This document shows positions 40,478 through 58,400 of a stretch of DNA of 64,000 nucleotides, piece by piece. Location: positions 1,116,001-1,180,000 of the forward strand of contig NW_026865484.1 in the NCBI RefSeq assembly GCF_026571515.1, in the 5' to 3' direction. The notes under the pieces are model-generated. The model was given only the letters and a program-made list of their open reading frames with translations, was not told where the DNA came from and searched no databases. A program made the translations under genes and the position numbers. How positions within the stretch are numbered: the first letter of the stretch is position 1; each line of letters starts with the position of its first letter. The DNA is from Ruditapes philippinarum (lineage: Eukaryota).

Positions 40478-41763
40478 TTGGTTTTGTTTGTTTGGATTTT
40501 TACGGCACGTCAACACATAACTGGCCATATCGTGCCGAATGCTATAATAGGCTTAAAATATTATGTAAAACATTGTAAATGACAATAAAAATGAGCCAAT
40601 TAGATCCTAGAATACAAGTTTATCTCTTTTAAATAATCAATTATGTTTTTTGATGGAATTGTATTAAAAAGTTCTTTGAGTGAATTTACAGAATAAAATC
40701 TATTACGGGCCTGTGAAAAATCATGACATTCAAGAAGAAAATGCTTGACGGTAAAATTTTCATTACAACCTACACAGAAAGGGGCATTGTCATTTGTGAG
40801 GAGATAAGAGTGGGTAATTTTAGTGTGTCCAATTCGGCATCGAAGAAGAACTGTTTGGTCACGGCGGTTTGACAGAGATAGAAGATGGTGACATATCAAG
40901 AGATGGGTTTATATCGTGAAGTTTATTAAAAACGGCATTGTCCCAATTTGCTTTCCATTCAGATGACACGAGTTTATTTATAGCCGGTCTAAAATCACAA
41001 GCAGGTAACAATAAGTCAGTTTTTTGAAAATTTAATGATTGTTTAGCTAAAGCATCTACTTTTTCATTTCCTCGTATTCCTACATGGCTTGGAATCCAAT
41101 ATAATTTAACATATTTTGTTTTAAGTATATCATGAAATCGCAAAAGAAGTTTCTTTACCATGATATTGTCACATTTTTTATTTTTAATGGATATTAAAAC
41201 AGAAAGCGAGTCAGAAAATATCACAAATTTATCGTGGGTATGCTGTGCTATGTTATGACAATGCTAAATCGATAGCTTTTGCTTCAGCAGTAAAAATTGA
41301 TGCATTATCTGGTAACCTCATACTAGATGTAAAATTATTTTCATACACAGCCGCACCTACTTTGCAACCTTCTTTTGAACCGTCCGTATAAATATGTATA
41401 AAATCTTCATGTTCTTCCTTAATTGCTAGAAACTTTTCTTTGAAATATTCAGGTGAATTTGATGCCTTTTTTATATTTGAAAGGTTAATATTTATTTCCG
41501 GGGAATTATAAGTCCAAGGTGGAACATCCTCATCGTCATTTTGAAGGATACTGTCTGGATTAATTTTAAGTTTATCTAAATCATCTTTTAAACGAAGGCC
41601 TAATGGTTTAATTTCCTTTGGTTTGCTAACAAATTTTTCAGTATAACTTGGTTTGAAAATAACATTTTTAGCTGGATTTTTCCTATTAGATGAAATTCTA
41701 GTTGCATATTGAAGTGATAGTTTTTTACGACGAAGATAAAGCGATGGTTCCCCAGCTTCCGCA
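40478..41763 (-). mobile_element. 5'-truncated I-group (Nimb/Ingi/I-like) LINE, RNase H plus C-terminal CCHC, frameshifted
   Basis: IYTDGSK, RLPDNASIFTAEA.AI, IFSDSLSVL, WIPSHVGIRGNEKVDALAK (RNase H); RCRIGHT, CVGC....TVKHFLLEC. These fall in three different frames. The 3' tail is GTGCCGTAAAAATCCAAACAAAC. Confidence 0.9.
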
Positions 41764-42055
41764 TGTTGGTAGTTTTCACTCCGGATCACGGCAGTAAGCC
41801 ACATTGAATTTACCAGAGCACAGTTAAAACCCGCACTGCTCCTGGGCAAACTGTCAAGCAGTTTACCATACTAGATGCCTTAACTTTCGCAAGAAACTTG
41901 TGATTTCTATACATGCCAGAGATGAGGTACAGTGCGAATGACCGTAGAAAGGATTTCATGATCAATCACAACGAAAGTCACCTGTAACGTCCGGGAAGCA
42001 AAACCCGGGTCTCCCGATTGACAGCCCAACGCTCTACCTATTGAGGTAGCCGGAC
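41764..42055 (-). mobile_element. tRNA-derived SINE, MetaSINE-like
   Basis: tRNA-like head (..CTCAATAGGTAGAGCG..CTGTCAA..CCGGGTTTTGCTTCCCGG), then GATCATGAAATCCTTTCTACGGTCATTC, which resembles the conserved Meta domain as I recall it. Confidence 0.7.
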
Positions 42056-43187: not shown

Positions 43188-43661
43188 TCAGATTTCTTCG
43201 ACCTTTGCCAGGCCATTTTCTACCCTAGTTCCGTAGCGGTAATCTCTTTCAGTAAATCCAATGTATCTGTCATAACTGTTTCCATTTATGTTCAATTCAC
43301 CGTTTTGCATAATTGTACTGTTTGTCCGTTCGTACGGATTTAAGGTAGGTTCCCACACACCATCTACCGGACCTGAGACAGTTGACCGGATAGAAGTGAA
43401 AGAATCATTCATTGTAAAATTTGAATCAAGTCTGCTCAACTGGCTACGTTGGAATCGAACCCGCCCTCCAGACATTACGTCAGAGTGAATTGTTCCAATG
43501 TCAGTCATTTTAGGACGGGCTTTGATTAAATCCGCACCGGTTCGTTTATTAGCGAACGAGACTCTAGGCTGCGTGTTATCGGTGCTCGAACCTTGTGGTG
43601 ACTCAAGCACAACCCGGGGCTTGGTCCGCTGTGACTTTTTCATGCTCGAACCATTGCCCAT
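43188..43661 (-). CDS. Uncharacterised 157-aa protein with an N-myristoylation-like start (MGNGSS)
   Basis: GC-richer open frame from ATG 43661 to TGA 43188. An upstream acceptor TTTTCTCTTTTGCAG at ~43766 is followed by an in-frame stop, consistent with a 5' UTR intron. No recognised domain. Confidence 0.65.
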   Translation of the reverse strand: MGNGSSMKKSQRTKPRVVLESPQGSSTDNTQPRVSFANKRTGADLIKARPKMTDIGTIHSDVMSGGRVRFQRSQLSRLDSNFTMNDSFTSIRSTVSGPVDGVWEPTLNPYERTNSTIMQNGELNINGNSYDRYIGFTERDYRYGTRVENGLAKVEEI

Positions 43662-43995
43662 AGAATTGTAGGTTTTCCATCCATATAACAAGTGATATGT
43701 ACACGACCGTTGCTCTTCACAGGATTGCCACGTTAATAATGAGAGTAACTAAAGAAGTACAATATCTGCAAAAGAGAAAATAATGTGATCAATAAATTTG
43801 CATATATAAAAATTAAAAATACAACAGCACCACCATTTGTATAAAATTAAATCGAGTATACTGATCGAAACTTGTTGGTGAGTTCGGTTTCTTTAAAACT
43901 ATATTATGTGTGACAATTTCGAATGAAGCCATTAAATATCCGTACAAATGGACATGTGAGAGCGATGGAAAGTAGCCGAAAATCCAAACATAATA

Positions 43996-44232: not shown

Positions 44233-45134
44233 TATAAATAACGCCATTTTCCGTGAGTGAACTATAAATACATAGAAATTAATTGTTACATATTCGTGTA
44301 TATTTTTTATATTAATAATTACGTATATAAAGATAACACGTAAATATTTTTGATGACTCTCCCAAGAAATTGTCAAGAGAATCCATACATCTATAAGAAA
44401 TGTAATCTTAATCAAATTAATCTACATTTTCTTTAAACAAAAACTTAATGAATGTTTCCGTTTGGTATGCCGTGGACTTGTATGAACAAAACGAAATCTA
44501 TCTGCAAAGAAAATCCACTGTACCTACATTAACTTCCTTTTCTTTCTAAAAATACGAAGTTAAAATATCACAACATCTCTTTGTCTAAAATAAGTGACAA
44601 TCCATCGATATTATTTAGGTTTATCAAAGTTACGAAAAGAACTATCTTATTTTATAAAATAGAAATATTATTAAACATAGAAAAGTACACGGGATAGATC
44701 GATTTAACATCAAAGAATCTATTGACATGCCACTAACTTGCTTTCAATCTATTCTATAGACGAGGGATAATATAGATATTCAATATATTCAAAAGATTTA
44801 GTCATGAATACATTGGTGAAATGGTTCCCTAAATAAAATACGTACGGTAGATCTATGTTAATATTTATTTGACTAAATAGATTTACCATCAGTAATGTGT
44901 GCAGGACAGAATCAGATACTTATATTACCATGGCTAATGAAAATTTCAACGATGAGCGTGTGTACAGTTGTATGTGTATAGTCGAAATAAATTCTGCATG
45001 CTTTATAAAAGAATGTGTGTTAAATTGTTTGTTTTATATGATTCTTCTCTATGAACATTTCGGGGCGTAAAACCCTGAAAATTTCAGCTATATAATCAGC
45101 ATTTTTTTTTCTCATATATAAAAGCAGGTCCGAG

Positions 45135-45335
45135 AAAAATAAATAAATAGATAGATAAATAAATAAATAAAAAATAAATAAATACAAAGCAAATAAATAA
45201 ATAAATACATTTGTGAATAAAATATAAGTAAATAAATACATTTGTAAATAAAATATAAATAAATAAATTTATGAATGAATGAATGAATGAACGAACGAAC
45301 GAACGAACGAACGAACGAACGAACGAATAAATAAA
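45135..45335. repeat. Compound microsatellite (AAAT)n-(GAAT)n-(GAAC)n
   Basis: Directly visible. Confidence 0.9.
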
Positions 45336-45841: not shown

Positions 45842-46645
45842 ACTAAAACATTTTTTGCACTTTGATATGAAATTATTGTTTTACAATGCATATATATTGC
45901 CCATTATGGACTATTGTTGTATTATATGGGGTAAAGGAAACACAAACTACATAAATAATGTTTGTAAGTTACAAAAACGAATTGCTAAAATCATTTTACA
46001 GCAACCACAAAGATCTCCGTCAATAAATCTATTCGAAACTCTTAACTGGTTACCGTTCCTTGACAGATGTAAATACCACACAGCGGTGCTTGTTTTTAAA
46101 ACTTTAAATAACATGGCACCGACTTATATGACAGAACTGATGACTTTATCCGACAACAAAATATATAACTTAAGATCTAGGTCACGAAAAGATATTGTAT
46201 TATGGACAAGACCTAAAACAAATTATATTAAAGACACATTTTCTTATTATGGCATGAACATTTGGAACAATATACCTTTAAATATTCGTAATGTTAATAA
46301 CCTTAAATGTTTTAAAGAAAAATACAAAGCATATCTTGATGTTCATATGAATGAATGAGTGAGTGAATGAATGAATAAATGAATGAACGAACGAACGAAT
46401 GATGCAATATACGTATATGTTTAAACAAATTGTTGAGTGTCTGTCGAAAGTATATGAGTTGTATTATTCTAAAAATTACATATTATACATTCATTTTTCT
46501 ACCTATGCATGTCCTGTTGTTGTTGTTGTTGTTGTTTTCTATTTCAGAAGGCCACATTGGAAATAAGATATATATGATTGTTATTGTATGTTCTTAATGT
46601 GTAACCTTCTTTAAATAAAGATATTATTATTATTATTATTATAAT
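45842..46645 (+). mobile_element. 5'-truncated CR1/L2-like LINE 3' end
   Basis: LFYNAYILPIMDYCCIIWG..LQKRIAKII..LFETLNWLP..VFKTLNNMAP.Y..YNLRS..TFSYYG..IWNNIP..IR..LKCFK; AATAAA plus (TTA)n tail at ~46613-46641. Confidence 0.9.
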
Positions 46646-47462: not shown

Positions 47463-50400
47463 ATGGTCGTTTCAATCGTTTTGAAGGAAAAAGGAAGAAA
47501 CAGACTCGGGGTATTGACGGCAATTCTTTCTGCAGTTCTAGCTCTAGCTGGATTTTGCATTATATTCGTTGGCTTATATATTCAACTGCATATTACTGAT
47601 CAACTTATTCTCTTAGAGAGTTACGGCTCAGGCGTTTTACCACATTTTATTGTTAGTGTCGGGGTTATCATGTTTTTGATAAATGGTGCGACTGTGAAAT
47701 TTGCATATGACAGTGGTTTCGCCGAAACATCCGAAAAATTTCGCCTTGTTCTTATCCCAGTATTGATTGTAATGTTTTTGTTTATTTGGGTCATACTTGC
47801 TGCTGCCATAATGACCCTGTCTATGAGAGGAGATGTCGAGGACGCACTGCATGCCGGCCTTAAAGGCGCCATGAAACGGTATAAGAAAAACCTACCTGTG
47901 AAAGTTACAATAGACAAAATGCAGATGGTAATGAGATGTTGCGGCAGCCGCTCTTATAAAGACTGGTTTGAAGTTGGATGGATAAACACGGAGTATGTCG
48001 ACACGCAGGATGTCGATGTAAAGAGGTTTGTAAAGATTTTTATTATTTTCGATATTTAAACTTTTTTTCATTAACTCTCTTACAAAAAATATCAAAACGA
48101 TTTTTTTATTCTTATTTTTTTTACTATTCTAAACCCGAACAAGAATTTGTAACAGAGTTACCAACGTCCCCCGCTTCGGGGAAGTTTTATATGAAGCATA
48201 AAATTGTGCTATTTCAAAAGATTGAGGTATGGATTTCAGGACTTTCAGTCCAAAATTATGATTAATGCTAGATCTGCAAATGCAACAATAAATTTATTAA
48301 AGAAATACTAGTAAAATGAAACATGGAATTTAAAATTCTATCATAATAACCTTTGACCTCTAAGTGTGACCTTGACCTTGGAGATAGGGGTGCAGGTGTT
48401 GTGCGTGACATATCGTCTTATTAATATTACTGTTTGTGCCAAGTATTTTCAAAATCCCTTGAACTATGTAGAAGTTATAGATCGGACATAAAATATACCC
48501 TATAACGGACTATGTCAATCTTTGACCTCTAAGTGTGACCTTGGAAGTAGGGACCCATGTTTTGCGCCTGACATATCATCTTATTATTGTGATTATTTGT
48601 TCAAAGTATTTTTAAAATCCCAGGTTATGGACTGGACACAAAATATACCCTATAACAGACTATGTAAATCTTTGACCTCTACATGTGACATTGACCTTGG
48701 AGGTAGGGACACATATGTTACGCATGACATATGTGATTATTTGTGCCAAGTATTTTCAAAATCCCTTGATCTATGAAGAAGTTATAGACGGGAAACAAAA
48801 TAAACCACATAACAGAGTCTGTTAACCTTTGACCTCTAAGTGTGACCTTGACCTTAGAGTAGGGGTGCAGGTGTTGTACCTGACATATTGTCTTATTATT
48901 GTGACTATTTGTGCCTAGTTATTTCAAAATCCTGAAGAAGTTCTAGATCAGACAAAAAATATACCTTAAAACATACTATGTTAACTTTTGACCTCTAAGT
49001 CTGACCTTGAACTTGGAGGTAGAGATGCAGGTGTTGCGCATGACAAAATTGTGGCAAGTATTTACAAAATCTTTGATCTATGAAAAAGTTATGGACCGAA
49101 CACAAAATTTACCCTGTTATAGACTATGTTAATCTTTGACCTCCAAGTGTGACCTTGACCTTGGAGGTAGGTGACCGGTTGTTGCGCATGACACATCGTC
49201 TTATTTAACAAACATTTGTGCCAAGTTATTTCAGATTCCTTTGATAAATGACAAAGTTATGGACCGGACTCGAAAGTGTAACGGACGGATGGACAGACAG
49301 ACAGACGGATGAAGCCTATTACTATATCCCCCTTTTTTCTTCGAAAAGGCGGGGGACAAAAAAAAACCAGGCAGTGACCAGGTTTTGAACCCCGAACCTC
49401 TCGATTACACTGAACCACGTCCCTAAAGGGTTAACCCAACAGCCTTGCTTACGCCTGAAATCACTACCTTACCGTAAAATGGTTAACTTCCCATTTAAGG
49501 TTTGAATAAAACTCCCAAAATAAAATCATTTTTTTATTATGTTTATTATTGGCTATATAAATTTTGTAATTTAGACAATGTAAGATTAAACTTACGATAC
49601 ATATAGTAACACGTCAATGACGCGATGCTAGGCAGGCGCTAGGCCGGTGCTAGGCTAAGCATTTTTGTGTTGACCTATTTTCCTATCAATTGTGGTTTTC
49701 AGTAAGATGAGAGACGGCGATCTATTTACAGACGACGTCCCCTTTAGTTGCTGTGACATAAAAAGTGCACGTCCATGCGTTTCACACAGAGTTACTGATA
49801 AAGGACAACACAGCAATTACGAGAAAGTGACACTGTATTCCAATGGATGTACAGACACTATTATGGACGAATTCGAGAATAGGATTCTCAAGCCTGCCGG
49901 ATCGGTTGTGATGCTATTGTTTGGTGCACAGGTACTCAAATATCAGTAATCTAGTAGTCTAACAGACGCAAGCTACATTGTTTGTCTTTTTCATATATAT
50001 TTTCAGCATACACGGCATGCATAAATACAACATAATACTTTACGATCATGATGTATAGTTGTATACAAGAAGCTTTGGCAGGCGCCTACTCGTTTAACAC
50101 GACACAAACCTAAATTTACAACTTTATGGTAATCTTTTATTTTTTTCTAATAGAATAGAAGTGACCTTTACCGAGGTTTTGAAGTTTTTACTTTTCATGA
50201 ACAATCTTAGTAGAGTAAGTTAATATATGGAGGTGTCTCCAGTTACTGTTGTACACCTCTGTTACTTTACACCTTAAGATATAACAATTTCAGGTGTTTG
50301 TGATGATTTTATTGAGATATCTACAGACCTCAGTGCAGGGTGCATTTGAAGACGGTGACATGGAAGGACCCGGGCGAGGATTTCTGTTCCCCGCCATGTG

Positions 50401-51975
50401 TACATCATGCACGAGTGGAAACCCTGATAAGTACAAAGATGGAGGTAAGTAATACAACGCTTGAGTTTAGTGTTACATTAAGATCTCATCTTCCCAGAAA
50501 TTTTGTTCACAAAACAACACGTGTTAAGTGCTGGTGGCAGCTGTAGAAAGTAACCTCGTTCTTCATCTTCGTGTTGTTATATTTTTCTGGTCCTTTGGGA
50601 TCACTGATTTTAATACTTTAGTATTAATGATTGAAAACGGCGGTGAAAATGGGTATGAGATGTTGCACTTTGAATTGTCGCTTATAAACATACTCAATAA
50701 AACCGAATCTGCAGTTTTATACCTTCTGTTTTTTTTAAATTGCTCTTAAAAATTTAAATGATCTTCCCATTTCCAGATTGTTCCTATCATATATTAGTAT
50801 GACAATTGTTACTCTGCAATGTATCCTATTGACAAGACTGTTGCATAGATATTGACGTCAAATATGTGTTTACAATAATCTTATAATATAAGTATATTTA
50901 TAAACAGAAGCATATCCTCTCTCCAATACTTTCAATACTTTACAGTTTATACATACATGTATACCAAACATTAAACAGAAAAATAAAATTCAAAAGGTGG
51001 TTTTATTTGGAGCCATCACGCCGTAACATATACATGTGAGATGTTTTCCGGAACGCTGCAGATGCGGTCCCTCCCCCCATACAAACATTTCCAACCAGTT
51101 TATCCCCGGTACAAACAATTACTGTTACTGTTAAATTAAGTATGAGATTGGATTATTCAAAACACTCCTTATTCCGGAGAAACTCTTTTTATTGGGAAAG
51201 TAACAATGAGGTCTATGCAAACATATCAGGATGAAATTTCTGAAATGTATATGTTTCTCTTTCTTTTGATTGACAATACATAAAAAACTTTCACTTACTA
51301 CTAAGATTTAGATGAAGAAGTATCTGTAAGTATTCTGTACAACATGTATATACACGTATATAAATTTTTGACATATGTGTATATATTTCAGGGACGATAT
51401 AAACAATATACTTTAAAAACAAAAATATAAAGATATAAAATGACAACACAAAATTCATTTTATTTTCTCACAAATCTGGACTGCCTGTTGAAACAAAATT
51501 AAGTCATTTACATGACGGAAAATGAATTAGATACACATATACCACATTTCATATTTCTTATTCTTGTAGTGTTGACACATATTCGCGGAGAAGCCACCGA
51601 TATAGAAACAACAGCAGACGTATCTTTGCACTGAAAATAATAACTGAAAATAAGACCGTTTTATGTTTTGTAGCGTTGAAAGCCATCCGTGGAGAAGGCG
51701 GTGACAATTCGACAGTAGGCGACACAACACAAGACAGTTCTTTACTACCAGACGGCCTTGATTTGCTCATGGATGATAAAGGTGGTGGCGGCGGTGGAGA
51801 TAAAAGTAAAAGTAAGAAAAATAAAGCAAAATCCAAGAAAAAACCGCCCAAGAAATCTAGAACTAAATCTAAAAGAAAGTCAAAAAAGAAAGGATTTAAG
51901 AAGAAAGGTGGTGGCAAAAAGAAAGGCGGTGGTGGAAAAAAGAAAGGTGGTGGCGGAGGTGGAAAGAAACGTTAA
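47463..51975 (+). CDS. Peripherin-2/ROM1-like tetraspanin (isoform with K/G-rich terminal exon)
   Basis: Exons 47463-48025, 49703-49931, 50294-50444, 51674-51975. Four hydrophobic segments; IDKMQMVMRCCGSRSYKDWFEVGWI, DDVPFSCC...ARPC, LY.NGC and LRYLQTS match the PRPH2/ROM1 D2 loop and post-TM4 motifs. Confidence 0.9.
48138..49362 (-). mobile_element. HINE-like element with a ~160-bp tandem array, in the tetraspanin intron
   Basis: Repeated TTTGACCTCTAAGTGTGACCTTGACCTTGGAG.TAGGG units, a (GGAC/AGAC)n tract, and subTIR GTCCCCCGC (48167) / GCGGGGGAC (49349). Confidence 0.85.
51570..51634 (+). CDS. Putative short alternative terminal exon of the tetraspanin (VLTHIRGEATDIETTADVSLH*)
   Basis: Pyrimidine-rich acceptor TTTCTTATTCTTGTAG, phase 1 as required by exon 3. 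It shares the xLxxIRGE start with the 51674 exon. Confidence 0.55.
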
Positions 51976-52313
51976 ATGAATGCAAGATAATCGACATTAA
52001 AGACTAAGAATTAATGTATTCACTTCAAAGAATCATAATACATATACATTGTAGTTCATTTTTTTGTCTAAACATGTGAATGGAATATGTAGTCTATTAA
52101 TTAAACTGAGTACAAAACTGACCATTGCTCTTTTTGTTTATTTTGATATAGCCGCTTTTTTGCATAGATCATCAATAAAATGTCTATAAATTTATATGAA
52201 TAGACAAGAAATATAAATGTAATACATTTAATTCATTAATATATCCGCTGTTGCCTGTTCTACACGATATATTATTCAAAATCTTGCAAGATAACCTTTT
52301 TCGTGTTTTGTAG

Positions 52314-53728
52314 AGCTAGAAATAACGTCTAATGTCGGTCATGACTTTGAGGAATCAATGATGTCAGAGATACAGCGAAGTGAGGATTTAAATGCAGATG
52401 ATATCACGTTAGAAAACGCAAGCTTTAGCAGCTTAACGGATTTAGAGTCAGGGACAAACCTTTTAAATGATAGTATCAACAAAATGCCCAATTTCAATCC
52501 TGACAATTCTTTACAGCACAGTTACATACATGAAGACAATTTACATGATTTAAATGCTCTCAGAACAACACGTGATAGTATACACAGACAGAATAGGAAT
52601 AACAAAGATGATAAGGGTTCTAATATGAAAATAACAACGGACATAGGTGGATTTGTATCCGAACAATACGATAAAAGGGATAGGTTGGATAAACATCACA
52701 GTTTAAATAGCTCAAAAATGTCCCATCAAACAGAAAAATCACCAAAAAAATCACTGTTTCAGTCGGCCAGAGAATCACAATCCCCCAAAAAGTCAAAAAC
52801 CCCTAAAACAGCAAATTCATCTTCTTCATCACCAAAAGAACCACGATCCCCCAAGAAGTCAAAAACCTCTAAAACGGAAAAATCATCTAAAAAGTCTAGG
52901 TCACCATCACCAAAAGAACCACGATTCCCGAAGAAGTCAAAAACCTCCAAAACGGCGAAATCATCTAAAAAGTCTAGGTCACAATCGCCAAAAGAATCAC
53001 GATCCCACGAGAAGTCAAAGACCTCCAAAACGGCGAAATCATCTAAAATGTCTAGGTCACCCTCACCAAAAGAACCACGATCCCCCAAGAAGTCAAAGAC
53101 CTCTAAAACGGCGAAATCATCTAAAAGGTCTAGGTCACAATCGCCAGAAGAATCACGATCCCCCGAGAAGTCAAAGACCTCTAAAACGGCGAAATCATCT
53201 AAAAAGTCTAGGTCACAATCGCCAAAAGAATCACGATCTCCCAAGAAGTCAAAGACCTCTAAAACGACGAAATCATCTAAAATGTCTAGGTCACCCTCAC
53301 CAAAAGAATCACGATCCCCGAAGAAGTCAAAAACCTCCAAAACGGCGAAATCATCTAAAAAGTCTAGGTCACAATCGCCAAAAGAATCACGATCCCCCAA
53401 GAAGTCAAAGACCTCTAAAACGGCGAAATCATCTAAAAAGTCTAGGTCACAATCACCAAAAGAACCACGATTCCCGAAGAAGTCAAAAACTTCCAAAACG
53501 GCGAAATCATCTAAAAAGTCTATGTCTCCATCGCCAAAAGAATCACAATCCCACAAGAATTCAAAAAAGCTCGAAACAGCGAATTCATCTAAAAGGTTTA
53601 GGTCACCATCGCCCAAAAAATCACGATCCCCCAAAAAGTCAAAAACCAAAAGGTCAAAACCTGTCAAGAAGTCACGATCGCCAGCAAAATCAAAACCACC
53701 TAAAAAAGGAAAGACACCTAAAAGGTAG
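52314..53728 (+). CDS. Ser/Lys-rich SPKK-repeat coding exon (protamine-like/H1-tail-like), probably an alternative last exon of the tetraspanin
   Basis: Acceptor CCTTTTTCGTGTTTTGTAG at 52313, phase 1 and in frame with ORF 52358-53728. About 11 copies of a 78-bp/26-aa unit SPKESRSPKKSKTSKTAKSSKKSRSQ. Confidence 0.75.
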
Positions 53729-55449
53729 AACAATAATTTGTTAAACGAAGAACTTCAGTGTTTATTAATTTATTTATTTATTTTTGGCGTGGGAGGGGAG
53801 GGGAGGGGTGGTGGTCTTGTTTAAAAAATGGAAGAAAAAAGACCTGTAAATGTGGACATAAACACTTTTATGTACAAACAATTGAAATGGTGTTGGCCGC
53901 AATATAAATAAGAGTTTAAATCATTGTTTTGTTCACAATATTTCAATTCAAAGTTAGTGAGAAAATGCTTGACATAATTTACTTGGTATTATTAAAACAA
54001 GATAAATGTAATATGTAACACATTGGGCAATTTTTGTGTGTCGACCTGTATATAATCAGAAACGTTTATCACGTATATGTTCACTATATACATCCCTGAT
54101 ATTACTTTTGAATTTCATGTCATCCATTTTTATTTTTGTCGAAATTTGTATATTTTAAGAGGCAACATAATGTTGACAAAACAACTGCAGCTTAAAGGCG
54201 GATAATATATAGTGTTCGTCCTTCCGTTAATTCTTTTATTCTACTCCTGATTACCCCGGTGGAGGATGACCAAAATGTGGAAATATGTCCGATTAGGGCT
54301 GCCCATCTCTACACTGACGTTTGTATACATACTGGTAAATGTAGCAAATCGTTATACATGTGGACATAAAGTTTATGTACTGTTTCTGTATATTGTTTTT
54401 TTTTCTAAGATAAAGTTTAAAAATATTCAATATAATTATGATAAAAATACGCTATGTATATAAATTGTCCGCATTATCAGGATTGATCGCTGTAAACCAA
54501 ACGACAATATAACAAGTGCTACAAAACAGGCGCGTTTTAACCTCACAAATTCACGATTTCAGCTTCATGAATTCGCTATTTCAACTTTATGATCTCACTA
54601 TTTAAGCATTAAGAATTTACCTTCACGATATGTAATATCTGAAAAGTGATCCCTCGGAAGCATTACGAAGTGCAAAATTACAAGACAATTAACTTTACAT
54701 TTTCAGAATTTCAGCTTGATTAATTAACGAAATCATTTTCGATCAGTTCGTGATTTCGAAAAGTTGAAATCATTAATTTATGAAATTCAAAAGTCGTGAA
54801 GTTGAAACTGTGAAAACGTGTCTTAGTTAGTTGGAATTGTGATTTCATGAAATTGAAATGGTAAATTCATGAATTTGAAATAATCATGAAGTTGATATAG
54901 TGAATTCATGAAGCTGAAATTGTAAAATGTTGAAATGTTCCCACAGATGTTTCGTATATTTGGGATGGCTTACAGAAACACCACAGTTTTTAGTTGTTGT
55001 CTGAATATAAATAGCATGAGATGATTATGACAAAAATGGCATACTATCATGGATATATAAATATAGAAAAATAGAACAGTTCTTTATCTTTTATTTAACA
55101 TGTGTAACAGCAACAAAAGTAAATATCTAAATAATAAAAAGACATATAAAATAGTATACTTTTTATGACAAATTCATCATTCACATTTCTTAAAAAGTAA
55201 ATGCGACACCCGCAATTATCAAAATACTATTATAAAAAAATATCAAAAGATCCACGAGTATAGTCAATGCACTAGTTAACGTCTTCAGTGACAATATCCC
55301 AAATGTTTGGTTATTTACAACTCCAAACTGATTCACTGAAATTAATAAGTTAATATACTGATTTTGATTGATTAGCTTAAAGCTGTATATCACAGAGACG
55401 CTCTAAATTACGTTTGTGTGGATTCCTAAACCAGTCTATGTGTTTATGG

Positions 55450-58400
55450 TCACAAGGGTGGTTTCGTTCGCCGAACTGACTCTTGGTTTTGTTTATTGTC
55501 TCCGCTGTAACTGAGCCAATCATAAAATCTGTCCATCAAAACAGATGGAGATGCACACGGACATGAACAGAACTTCCGGTCTGCGGATGGATTTGAAGAT
55601 ATTTGTTCCATGGTGTCGCTCTTTTTGCAAAACTTTACCAAACTCGAAGCGAATTTTGTTATCGAGCCAGTTTCGTTTTCCGGTCCACACAGAGATAAAA
55701 ATGTCGTAAAACCAAAAAGGGAAAACAAGAGAGAAATTCCGACTGTACTTAATATAAATATCCCAAATTGGAAGAAAAATTGTATTTGAGCAAATAACAT
55801 AAAAACAGCAGCACCCATCGTTGTAATGGCCCCTGATATTACAGAAAGTCCAATTGATTCAAGCATATCGTGAACTCTATCTAATCGTCTGGATGACTTT
55901 GACATCCGGTAAGCTTCTGCGAGATGAACAATATAGTCAACAGATAGTCCGACAACCATGCAAAGATTAATTGACTCCAAAACCTGCAATCAAAGGATAG
56001 TTTTTTTTTATATCAAACAAAAAAAAACGACATTTTAATTCAAAATAAGAACAAACAAATGTCGTGGTTAACGCTCGAGCAGAATTTTTCCTAGAAAATA
56101 TTCATTTTTACAAGTCTCTACATTTGTCATAAAAAGGGTAAATTACTAAATTAAAAAAGAAAATATGTTTCTTTATCATAAAGGAACTTAATTTAATAGA
56201 TCCTGACTACAATATCAAATCACAATGAGGAATAAAGCATTAAAACAGTAATTCACTATTTGACTTATTTACCCCAAGTTTCCAGCCGGCTAGTGGTACT
56301 ACACCTATGACACAAGCTGTGACAAGACCTATAGTAATGGCGGCTATAGTTCCGATTATAAAGTTAGACGTTGTTAGAACTAGAATAGGCCATGCAGACA
56401 ACAATCCGACGATGATACCTGTTATTGCTGATGTCGCAAGTGTCTGAAAAATAATATATAAATAGACGATATTGAAAGAGTGTAAGTTCAATACTGAATT
56501 TATTGAAGGAGCAGAATAAATTAATATTTTGCAAACTTTACGCTTATGTTTTATTACGCAAATGACATTACCTCAAAATACAAGCACGGCCGTGAATACG
56601 TTTTTTTACGGGGCCGCAAGTTACATTGTATTATTTGTGTACCCCTGTTTTCTTTTCTACGTTGATTCATTTATAAATAAATGATCCGATATTCTAACAA
56701 TAAAAGAGGACAAAGTTGTTGTTTTTTGTTATTGTAGTTCAGTAGAATCTACATCAATCACAAACAGAAAAGGACAAAATTTTATATCATCGTTGCGTCA
56801 ATTAAAATACGCACGTGTAATACGATGTTGTATTATCATATAATACGTACCTCTTGTACATGTAGCCAGTGCCAAAGAGTCTCCGTTACTTGGATGCCAT
56901 TTTGTAGAGATGCTGGCATTCTTTCATTCTTAAAATTAAAAATAAATACATGTTTAACAAAGTCTTTTTTTAGAATTAAATGCAAGGTTACGTACTTAAT
57001 TTAAGCGTATCTTTAATATTTCAATTACACGTATAATAGTGACACAGTGACCACCATGCCCATCAGCGATGTAATATGACATGATAGTGAATAGAAAAAA
57101 GTTTAAAATAAAGTTTAATAATTGGTGTATATGATACAACGCTTTGTACAAAATATTTGGGAAGACAAATGAAATTCTCCAATTTCTATCAAAGTGCACA
57201 AGTCTTTATCATTTTCCAAGACTTAACAATATTATGCTGAACTATTTTGAATAAATAAAAAATACTTACTATATTTTGAATGAAATTTTCCCACTCATGA
57301 AATATAGGAAGTCCTTCCTTGTAGCCAATACTGTAAACGTTCATGGTCGTGTTGATTTCTATAGCCAGATACTGTAACTTTGTACCATAGTACAGGCCTA
57401 TAATAATTACATATATCATTTGATTAATATTGGCTTGAAAGCGGACAGACGTTTATAGCGGAATATACTTTTACGTCATTCTATGGTTAAAACATAAACT
57501 TAATAATATTAGGTTTGGTGAATAAAAAGAAATGAGCCGTGTCACGACAAAACCAACATAGTGGGTTTGCGACCAGCATGGATCCAGACCAGCCTGCGCA
57601 TCCGCGCAGTCTGATCAGGATCCATGCTGTTCGCTATCAGCTTCTCTACTTGTTATAGGGTGTGTAAGCGAACAGCATGGATCCTGATCAGACTGCACGG
57701 TTGCGCAGGCTGGTCTGGATCCATGCTGGTCGCAAACGCATTACGTTGGTATTGTCGTGACGCGGCTCAAATGTAATTTTGTTTAATGTTTTAGAGGTGC
57801 CGGATCTTCCACAGTTCTGTAGGGAATGGGAAATAAATGATGGTAGGCCATACCCAATGCTAACATAACGGATGTGTACATAAAGGCACATGTCGATGGC
57901 ATGCATGCATATACGTTTTCTGTGTTAATCACTTTTTCCCAGGTACAGGTTTAAAATCAATGGCTACTGGAAAGGTCAGGTATGTCATTAAATTTTCCCA
58001 TTATTTTAAAAAGATATTTAAGAAATAAAAAGCGATACCTATCAAAGTTTGTGTGGTACATGTATATATTAAAGAAACATACCAGAGTTGGAATAGTATG
58101 CATTTTGTGTGACGTCTTGAACCTTCTTTTCGGCAAACAGGTGATTATAGCGAAAATAGTCTTTTGTCGGATTCAACTGGTAACCATCCGTCAGCCAGTA
58201 CGATATGAGAAGCTGGAAACCAATTTTCATAAACTAATCATGTACTTAATGCCATACATTCATGATCTAGAATTTTTGCCAATTTCAACATAATACAGCT
58301 CATCGTAATAACGTACACATATAAATAAAGACATAACCAGTAAATTATTATAATTATCTTTTCAATATAAGGCACGTTTTCACTTCAAATGTAAGGCTAA

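Follow-up and report, generated by a model that had tools for sequence, protein, structure and literature searches.

A peripherin-family tetraspanin gene of Ruditapes philippinarum and the choice between splicing and polyadenylation at its composite terminal exon

The stretch of DNA considered here, hereafter the window, comprises 64,000 nucleotides (nt) of Ruditapes philippinarum (NCBI RefSeq assembly GCF_026571515.1, contig NW_026865484.1, positions 1,116,001 to 1,180,000 of the forward strand), and coordinates are counted from its first letter. Between 47463 and 53728 it carries what is likely to be a four- or five-exon tetraspanin gene of the RDS/peripherin family with a composite terminal exon. 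Two isoforms arise from this gene, a major one of 414 amino acids (aa) and a minor one of 831 aa, and it can be said with considerable confidence that they result from a choice between splicing and polyadenylation at the composite exon. The parts of the gene, all on the + strand, are the following.

47463..48025, +: coding part of exon 1, from the ATG to a phase-2 donor, with transmembrane (TM) segments TM1-TM3 and the first half of extracellular loop 2 (EC2) with its CCG motif
49703..49931, +: exon 2, with the second half of EC2 (PFSCC, RPC, GC) and the start of TM4, ending in a phase-0 donor
50294..50444, +: exon 3, with the end of TM4, LRYLQTS, a Cys pair and a GNPDKY motif, ending in the phase-1 donor GAG/GTAAGT
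51570..51634, +: "exon A", in which acceptor B and roughly the first 75 nt of exon B are partly duplicated in tandem
51674..51811, +: 5' part of composite exon B common to both isoforms, coding for an acidic/Gly-rich linker of 46 codons
51812..51817, +: internal 5' splice site GTAAGA (AAA/GTAAGA), used in the joint 51811>52314 of assemblies X2 and X3 (see below)
51812..52121, +: read-through part of exon B, with a 53-aa K/G-rich end, the stop at 51975 and the 3' untranslated region
52314..53728, +: exon C, with a 147-aa polar/acidic spacer and then ~11 copies of a 26-aa SPKESRSPKKSKTSKTAKSSKKSRSQ-type repeat
53991..53996, +: ATTAAA, from sequence only a candidate poly(A) signal for the long isoform

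The splice architecture is read from 4 of 24 listed sequencing runs, namely X1, X2, X3 and X24, which were aligned to 49600-52820. The first three, referred to as the expressing assemblies, are contig sets from three different studies, labelled as RNA by guess; the run search held 14 runs that are RNA by guess only, and none recorded as RNA. X1-X3 are treated as transcriptomes because an exonic depth of 339-586 stands against an intronic depth of 0-11 (setting aside one 38-nt repeat common to other transcripts), and because they show GT..AG joints and a poly(A) tail. Joints in X1-X3 are those among the joints listed, and contigs lose rare forms. X24, raw RNA of which ~4% was sampled, gave an exon depth of 1-2, not above that of the introns, and no junction reads. 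At 50571-50608, a 38-nt intronic fragment of a common repeat reaches a depth above 1000 in X24, with unrelated flanks.

All three expressing assemblies join exon 2 (contig depth 339-431) to exon 3, have loose contig ends 5' of 49701 that correspond to the end of exon 1, and join exon 3 to acceptor B (50444>51674, at depths of 586, 350 and 339 in X1, X2 and X3, respectively), the contig passing unbranched from exon 3 into exon B. In X2 and X3, a single contig covers exon 1 sequence and exons 2 and 3 and ends at 51811, where the graph forks between read-through of B and exon C, the latter being reached by an in-frame GT..AG joint, 51811>52314, at depths of 10.3 (X2) and 19.7 (X3). Contigs of exon C are present in all three assemblies at depths of 8-20 across 52314-52820, the read alignment extending to 52820. 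Coverage is zero over 52192-52299 in X1-X3, and therefore exon C is not entered unspliced; together with the joint from B in two of the assemblies, this gap led us to reject exon C as a separate gene with a nearby promoter.

The donor at 51811 matches the U1 consensus at 6 of 9 positions, compared with 8 of 9 for the donor of exon 3. It lies in phase 1, so that the shared part of B and exon C are in frame, and the joined frame of 831 aa contains a sole stop, the terminal one. In the 414-aa isoform, the 53-aa read-through end is 49% Lys. A poly(A) tail at 52121 is seen in one of the three assemblies: X3 carries 22 non-templated A behind this position, 16 nt past an ATTAAA at 52100-52105 and at a place where the genome is not A-rich, while X2 stops at 52103 in adapter and X1 at 52032. 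We infer that both isoform mRNAs are full-length and free of nonsense-mediated decay, and the splice mechanism is of an ordinary, already known kind.

The tails of the two isoforms are of one kind and differ in their length, their charge and their Ser-Pro sites. Counted after YLQTS, the tail measures 137 aa in the short form and 554 aa in the long one, with net charges of +22 and +84, and the last 50 residues of the two isoforms hold 27 and 22 Lys+Arg, respectively. The long tail, which has no Pfam, database or Atlas match, contains 26 Ser-Pro, 12 [S/T]Px[K/R] and 36 RS/SR motifs. Its repeat region (30% Ser, 28% Lys, 11% Pro, 8% Arg) is encoded by a 78-nt array at 52827-53647, the frame of which is kept throughout 10.5 copies. 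Exon C appears single-copy in the genome assembly G000, where a weak search returned itself as sole match, and the allelic differences listed in 52316-52820 number 14, with no stop among them and no indel listed. Descent of C from B by duplication is unconvincing: 10 acceptor bases are identical, followed by ~14 matches in 37 aligned positions.

The original prediction for this locus, made from the letters of the DNA, described three interchangeable last exons, any of which could follow exon 3 directly. Its reading of the DNA itself was sound. The phase-1 end of exon 3 (GGAG/GTAAG at 50444, behind a core of 943 nt summed over the coding parts of exons 1-3) and three TGTAG acceptors ending at 51569, 51673 and 52313 are present, and behind them lie phase-1 tails of 21 aa (stop ending at 51634), 100 aa ending in GGGKKKGGGGGGKKR (51975) and 471 aa (53728). 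That each acceptor leads to its own stop is true and at the same time trivial, as the same holds for 9 of 9 pyrimidine-rich YAG sites (50445-54600, at least 10 of 14 pyrimidines), one unrelated site yielding 18 aa, comparable to the 21 aa of A. What did not survive is the way in which these parts are joined. The sole acceptor seen on exon 3 is B, in three of three expressing assemblies, and C is spliced from the donor inside B (51811/51812), which had been overlooked. Among the junctions proposed as a check, 50444>51674 was found, while 50444>51570 and 50444>52314 were not among the joints listed in any of the three expressing assemblies, with the proviso that contigs lose rare variants; a single junction at exon 3, and exon C spliced from a separate exon, are the outcomes that the prediction had itself named as speaking against it. 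As coding ends, B and C are transcribed, whereas no junction was seen for A, and the description of the tails as very different was overstated, since the first 46 codons of B are common and both ends are polybasic.

Exon A is probably an unused duplicate pseudo-exon. Its origin by duplication, first suspected from the xLxxIRGE likeness of A and B, is borne out by 21 of 33 identical nt after the acceptor, where none of the 1633 other YAG sites on the window's + strand exceeds 17, in an alignment with a net 12-nt gap. The differences between A and B are distributed 3/6/7 over the codon positions of 17 codons, and the third-position excess sought there as a mark of coding constraint was not seen. 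No poly(A) signal was found in the sequence between the stop of A and the acceptor of B; therefore, if A were used, it would serve the same terminal exon as a 3' splice site further upstream. Neither X2 nor X3 has any depth over exon A, and X1 has one unspliced contig (51343-51701, depth 10.6) that spans exon A into B and may stem from intron retention or pre-mRNA.

The predicted core protein has the features of a tetraspanin, with hydrophobic peaks at ~13-46, 54-81, 89-123 and 249-275 for four TM segments, an even number of six EC2 cysteines (159, 160, 204, 205, 213 and 237) and CCG. Exon 1 matches Pfam Tetraspanin PF00335 with an E value of 4.5e-14 (53.1 bits, cut-off 32.1), and the nearest named protein, from the clam Mya arenaria, is 60% identical across exon 1. 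The assignment to the peripherin/ROM1 family, already part of the original prediction, was confirmed by family tests: with the Mya relative P0001 as query, whose identity to the window protein is 58-60%, PRPH2 scored 157 bits (E 5.6e-45), ROM1 102 and the next tetraspanin 38.5; PRPH2 and ROM1 (PDB 7zw1) are the closest solved structures, and 69 further matches are fish ROM1 or peripherin-like wherever named. Intron 1 splits codon 188 in phase 2, aligned to D194 of PRPH2, and intron 2 follows Q264 in phase 0, aligned to E276; the human PRPH2 splice variants c.582-1 and c.828+1, as given in the available text of PMC11098050, mark the matching intron positions c.581/582 and c.828/829. Within this family, RDS, ROM1 and RDS2 are described as vertebrate ohnologues (PMC2965184, in part), and by its sequence the window protein would be classed as an RDS-family member, not as PRPH2 or ROM1 proper.

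The relatives were taken from the best 150 of 488 library matches, of which the 50 of at least 320 aa were inspected together with four earlier matches. The tree holds 39 of these 54 relatives plus the window core and a paralogue, the remaining 15, among them P0161 with its short basic end, having been left out because by eye they looked truncated, mispredicted or distant. The window protein, the tandem paralogue and Mya group together with a support of 100/99, and an eight-row molluscan clade with a support of 95/91 also includes Haliotis, two scallops, Lottia and P0185. Named members are Mya arenaria XP_052766894 (P0001), Haliotis XP_046571098, Mizuhopecten OWF38240, Argopecten XP_069116530 and Lottia V3ZU77 (P0084). 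Lys+Arg in the last 50 residues number 21-37 in five of the six clade members of other genomes, and at least 21 in 1 of 33 rows outside, where the cut-off of 21 was chosen after the data had been seen, a point to be counted with the objections below. A K/R/S repeat tail of 310 aa is present in scallop P0079. Beyond the clade, too, some tails reach several hundred residues, and invertebrate relatives commonly have long or basic tails. To judge from these sequences, an acidic linker followed by a basic end is the clade pattern, of which the window gene makes short and long versions. Among the protein records examined, as opposed to genomes, there was no relative that switches between a short and a long basic tail, and the tails of two Haliotis rubra isoforms are identical.

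The tandem paralogue lies ~30 kb away (G000:C13971:1188600-1194186, - strand), is 57% identical in exon 1 and was modelled from sequence at 802 aa. It has a single last exon with a B-like start (DSLLxxGLDL), followed by ~440 aa of basic repeats, of D/K/S type and then of S/K/R/G and RSRG type, with 15 Lys+Arg in the last 50 residues. Two distant peripherin-like paralogues (~30%) stand in tandem at G000:C14058:26338-26871 and 44765-45289 (+ strand), the first with a transposon-like block after exon 2 and the second with a 324-codon Ser/Pro-rich open reading frame downstream (L009 8311-9282).

One part of the core varies between alleles to an unusual degree.

49782..49844, +: allelic hypervariable EC2 patch, residues 215-235, with 14 sites differing between window and runs and 10 codons changed

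The runs also differ from one another in this patch. Relative to the window, the contigs of X1-X3 each carry 12 differences in exon 2 and none in exon 3; in 51672-51811, none occurs in X2 or X3. None of 200,000 uniform draws was as tight as the observed cluster. Amino-acid-changing sites number 12 of 14, near the neutral 79%, and it is therefore the clustering that is the signal, an excess being unproven. Because an imperfect 24-nt tandem pair overlaps the patch, conversion over a short tract could explain it instead of selection. A hidden paralogue behind these differences was considered and rejected, exon 2 having one match in G000, an assembly that is perhaps incomplete.

Within intron 1, ~five units of 148-154 nt followed by a microsatellite-bearing end occupy 48347-49240, an array that we take to resemble a non-autonomous bivalve mobile element. 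Elsewhere in the window, the 3' end of a convergent gene with sterol-sensing and MMPL matches (dispatched/patched-like) lies at 55450-56572 (- strand), and a 186-codon frame with MGNGSS, a possible myristoylation start, at 43188-43748 (- strand) has no Pfam match. Fragments at 40600-41870 (- strand) and 45843-46358 (+ strand) presumably resemble C-terminal RNase H and reverse-transcriptase regions of long interspersed nuclear elements; the two frames tested from them had no Pfam match at E 0.01.

Peripherin-2 is a photoreceptor disc-rim protein. The four-TM/EC2 core of the clam protein may likewise assemble in and bend membrane, as PRPH2 does at disc rims, the site being most likely spermatids or sperm, at the acrosome rim or the flagellar membrane. 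Exon 3 is spliced to acceptor B, and where the moderate donor at 51811 is passed over, polyadenylation near 52121 gives the message for 414 aa with a Lys/Gly end; where the donor is used, the proximal poly(A) site is spliced out and C is joined in frame to give 831 aa. The cytosolic tail, with its acidic linker and polybasic end, could be a disordered tether that binds anionic lipids or acidic cytoskeleton electrostatically, and the long form, with ~60 extra net positive charges and its 26 Ser-Pro, could be a longer tether switchable by phosphorylation. Expression in the male germ line is moderately probable by analogy with relatives: in the available text of PMC5800059, a freshwater (unionid) mussel RDS2-like unigene is male-gonad-specific and has Lottia V3ZU77, the P0084 of the molluscan clade, as best UniRef90 match, and a second, male-biased RDS2-like mussel unigene matches an abalone entry named "Sperm protein". 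The tether function is a more tentative proposal, suggested by the composition of the tail and by the relatives.

Several observations weigh against this interpretation, and some of them bear directly on the long isoform. Exon C makes up just ~3% (X2), ~4% (X1) and ~6% (X3) of the shared contig depth, or up to 17% of the read-through contig in X3, contig depth being a rough and poor gauge of expression. Short-read contigs are no proof of a single molecule from exon 1 to C, the RNA label of X1-X3 is a guess, although the splice joints and the poly(A) tail favour RNA, and in X1 the C contig (depth 19.2) begins exactly at 52314 with no predecessor joint listed, so the donor is unseen there. Of the 14 allelic differences in exon C, 10 change an amino acid, where 81% would be expected without selection, and no homologue of the C spacer was found among 225 candidates, nor any Atlas match, in searches that are weak. 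The long form could thus be leaky splicing of little function, from a chance GTAAG in a run of Lys codons and a repeat open reading frame downstream, an account favoured by the low share of C, by the lack of relatives of its spacer, by the 10 non-synonymous to 4 synonymous changes and by the ease with which A-rich Lys codons produce GTAAG. It is nevertheless improbable in view of the 471-codon open frame in the correct phase, with a 78-nt repeat that stays true to frame over 10.5 copies, the presence of C in three of three assemblies from three studies, and the comparable long basic repeat tails of the tandem paralogue and scallop P0079. Very little can be given to a set of three last exons that exclude one another, are spliced straight to exon 3 and perhaps depend on tissue. 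Each of the three acceptors is a good phase-1 TGTAG site, A retains the frame of B over the net 12-nt gap, the predecessor of the X1 contig starting at 52314 is not listed, and the aligned runs are 4 of 24. Such an arrangement needs one donor joined to at least two terminal acceptors, however, and in three of three assemblies, which as contigs can lose rare forms, no joint 50444>51570 or 50444>52314 is listed and the contig is unbranched from exon 3 to B; X2 and X3 have zero depth over A, the X1 contig passes 51570 without being spliced, and A has neither a third-position excess nor a poly(A) signal of its own.

As regards function, the placement in sperm rests on relatives linked through best matches and not through an orthology test, and Lottia P0084, the very member tied to male expression, has just 10 Lys+Arg and no strongly basic end. 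A PRPH2-like role in ciliary photoreceptors or other somatic ciliary membranes, in which the basic tail would be a ciliary targeting or axoneme-binding signal with no relation to sperm, would suit PRPH2 (E 5.6e-45) and ROM1 as the closest solved structures. It is rather unlikely, given that a contig depth of several hundred in bulk libraries would be hard to obtain from sparse photoreceptors, that the PRPH2 oligomerisation cysteine is absent and that the clade-linked unigene is described as male-gonad-specific (PMC5800059, in part). The leaky-splicing, ciliary and three-exon accounts are not mutually exclusive with all parts of the composite-exon and sperm-tether interpretation. A bolder extension of the latter, quite improbable as it stands, would see a sperm-specific molluscan branch of peripherins as a membrane bender with a protamine-like tail, in which the long isoform holds the perinuclear layer or condensing chromatin at a curved membrane rim. 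Its disordered acidic spacer and its SPKK/RS repeats, open to phosphorylation, would reach the inner nuclear or the acrosome-facing spermatid membrane, the choice between splicing and polyadenylation would set the dose of the long isoform and, if this were true, the hypervariable EC2 patch would mark a surface under rapid evolution of the sperm type.

The interest of the gene lies in its family, that is, in a molluscan clade that combines PRPH2 intron positions, polybasic tails, the lack of the oligomerising cysteine and a link to the male gonad. If this is confirmed, the role that RDS tetraspanins played before there were vertebrate discs could be studied outside the retina, and the role of the tail could be tested on two natural isoforms that share a core and differ in tail length. 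No published description of molluscan peripherin tails was found in the open literature, subscription journals and most supplements lying outside the search.

When set beside known systems, the splice arrangement is the most familiar part. The switch between secreted and membrane IgM is the textbook composite terminal exon, and as in that class an internal donor competes here with a poly(A) site 310 nt downstream and the C-terminus is swapped. It differs from the textbook case in that the proximal polyadenylated form is the major one, with an ancestral-type end, and in that both forms keep all four TM segments. The composite terminal exon is treated as a standard class of intronic polyadenylation (PMC8559711, in part). 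Human tetraspanins with altered C-termini are documented in the available text of PMC6773723, where human PRPH2 and ROM1 have one listed isoform each.

With PRPH2, ROM1 and RDS2 the window protein shares the four TM segments, the EC2 motifs CCG, PFSCC, RPC and GC, and LRYLQTS after TM4, and introns 1 and 2 agree with those of human PRPH2 in both codon and phase. Unlike PRPH2, the gene has an additional phase-1 intron after exon 3, and the tail after YLQTS is polybasic and of 137 or 554 aa, compared with 57-78 aa in fish ROM1. The unpaired EC2 cysteine C150/C153 serves the disulfide-linked oligomers of PRPH2 and ROM1; unlike vertebrate PRPH2, the window protein lacks the insert of 4-5 residues in EC2 that bears C150 (C150/C153), and this insert with its extra cysteine is a gap in all six molluscan rows. 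A C-terminal amphipathic helix is described for PRPH2 (PMC11540925 and PMC6773723, in part). A helix of this type is not clearly recognisable in the window protein, where the best 15-residue hydrophobic moment is 0.41, compared with 0.29-0.53 in four vertebrate-type rows, and the sequence there is unconserved.

The closest likeness is to the molluscan RDS2-like proteins, with which the window protein shares a Cys-rich GDPxKY-type motif, the acidic linker and the basic end, often with SPK motifs, Mya having G-ALQKMRRE where window isoform B has G-ALKAIRGE; in the records examined these relatives have one tail type each, whereas the window gene has two. Basic sperm proteins rich in SPKK or RS include the sea urchin sperm H1/H2B with their SPKK tails, the bivalve protamine-like proteins and the cylicins. 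The likeness of the C repeat region to these is compositional only, with no Pfam or Atlas match and no second genomic match and, unlike in SPKK sperm proteins, the C repeats are fused to a membrane protein and would, by tetraspanin topology, lie in the cytosol.

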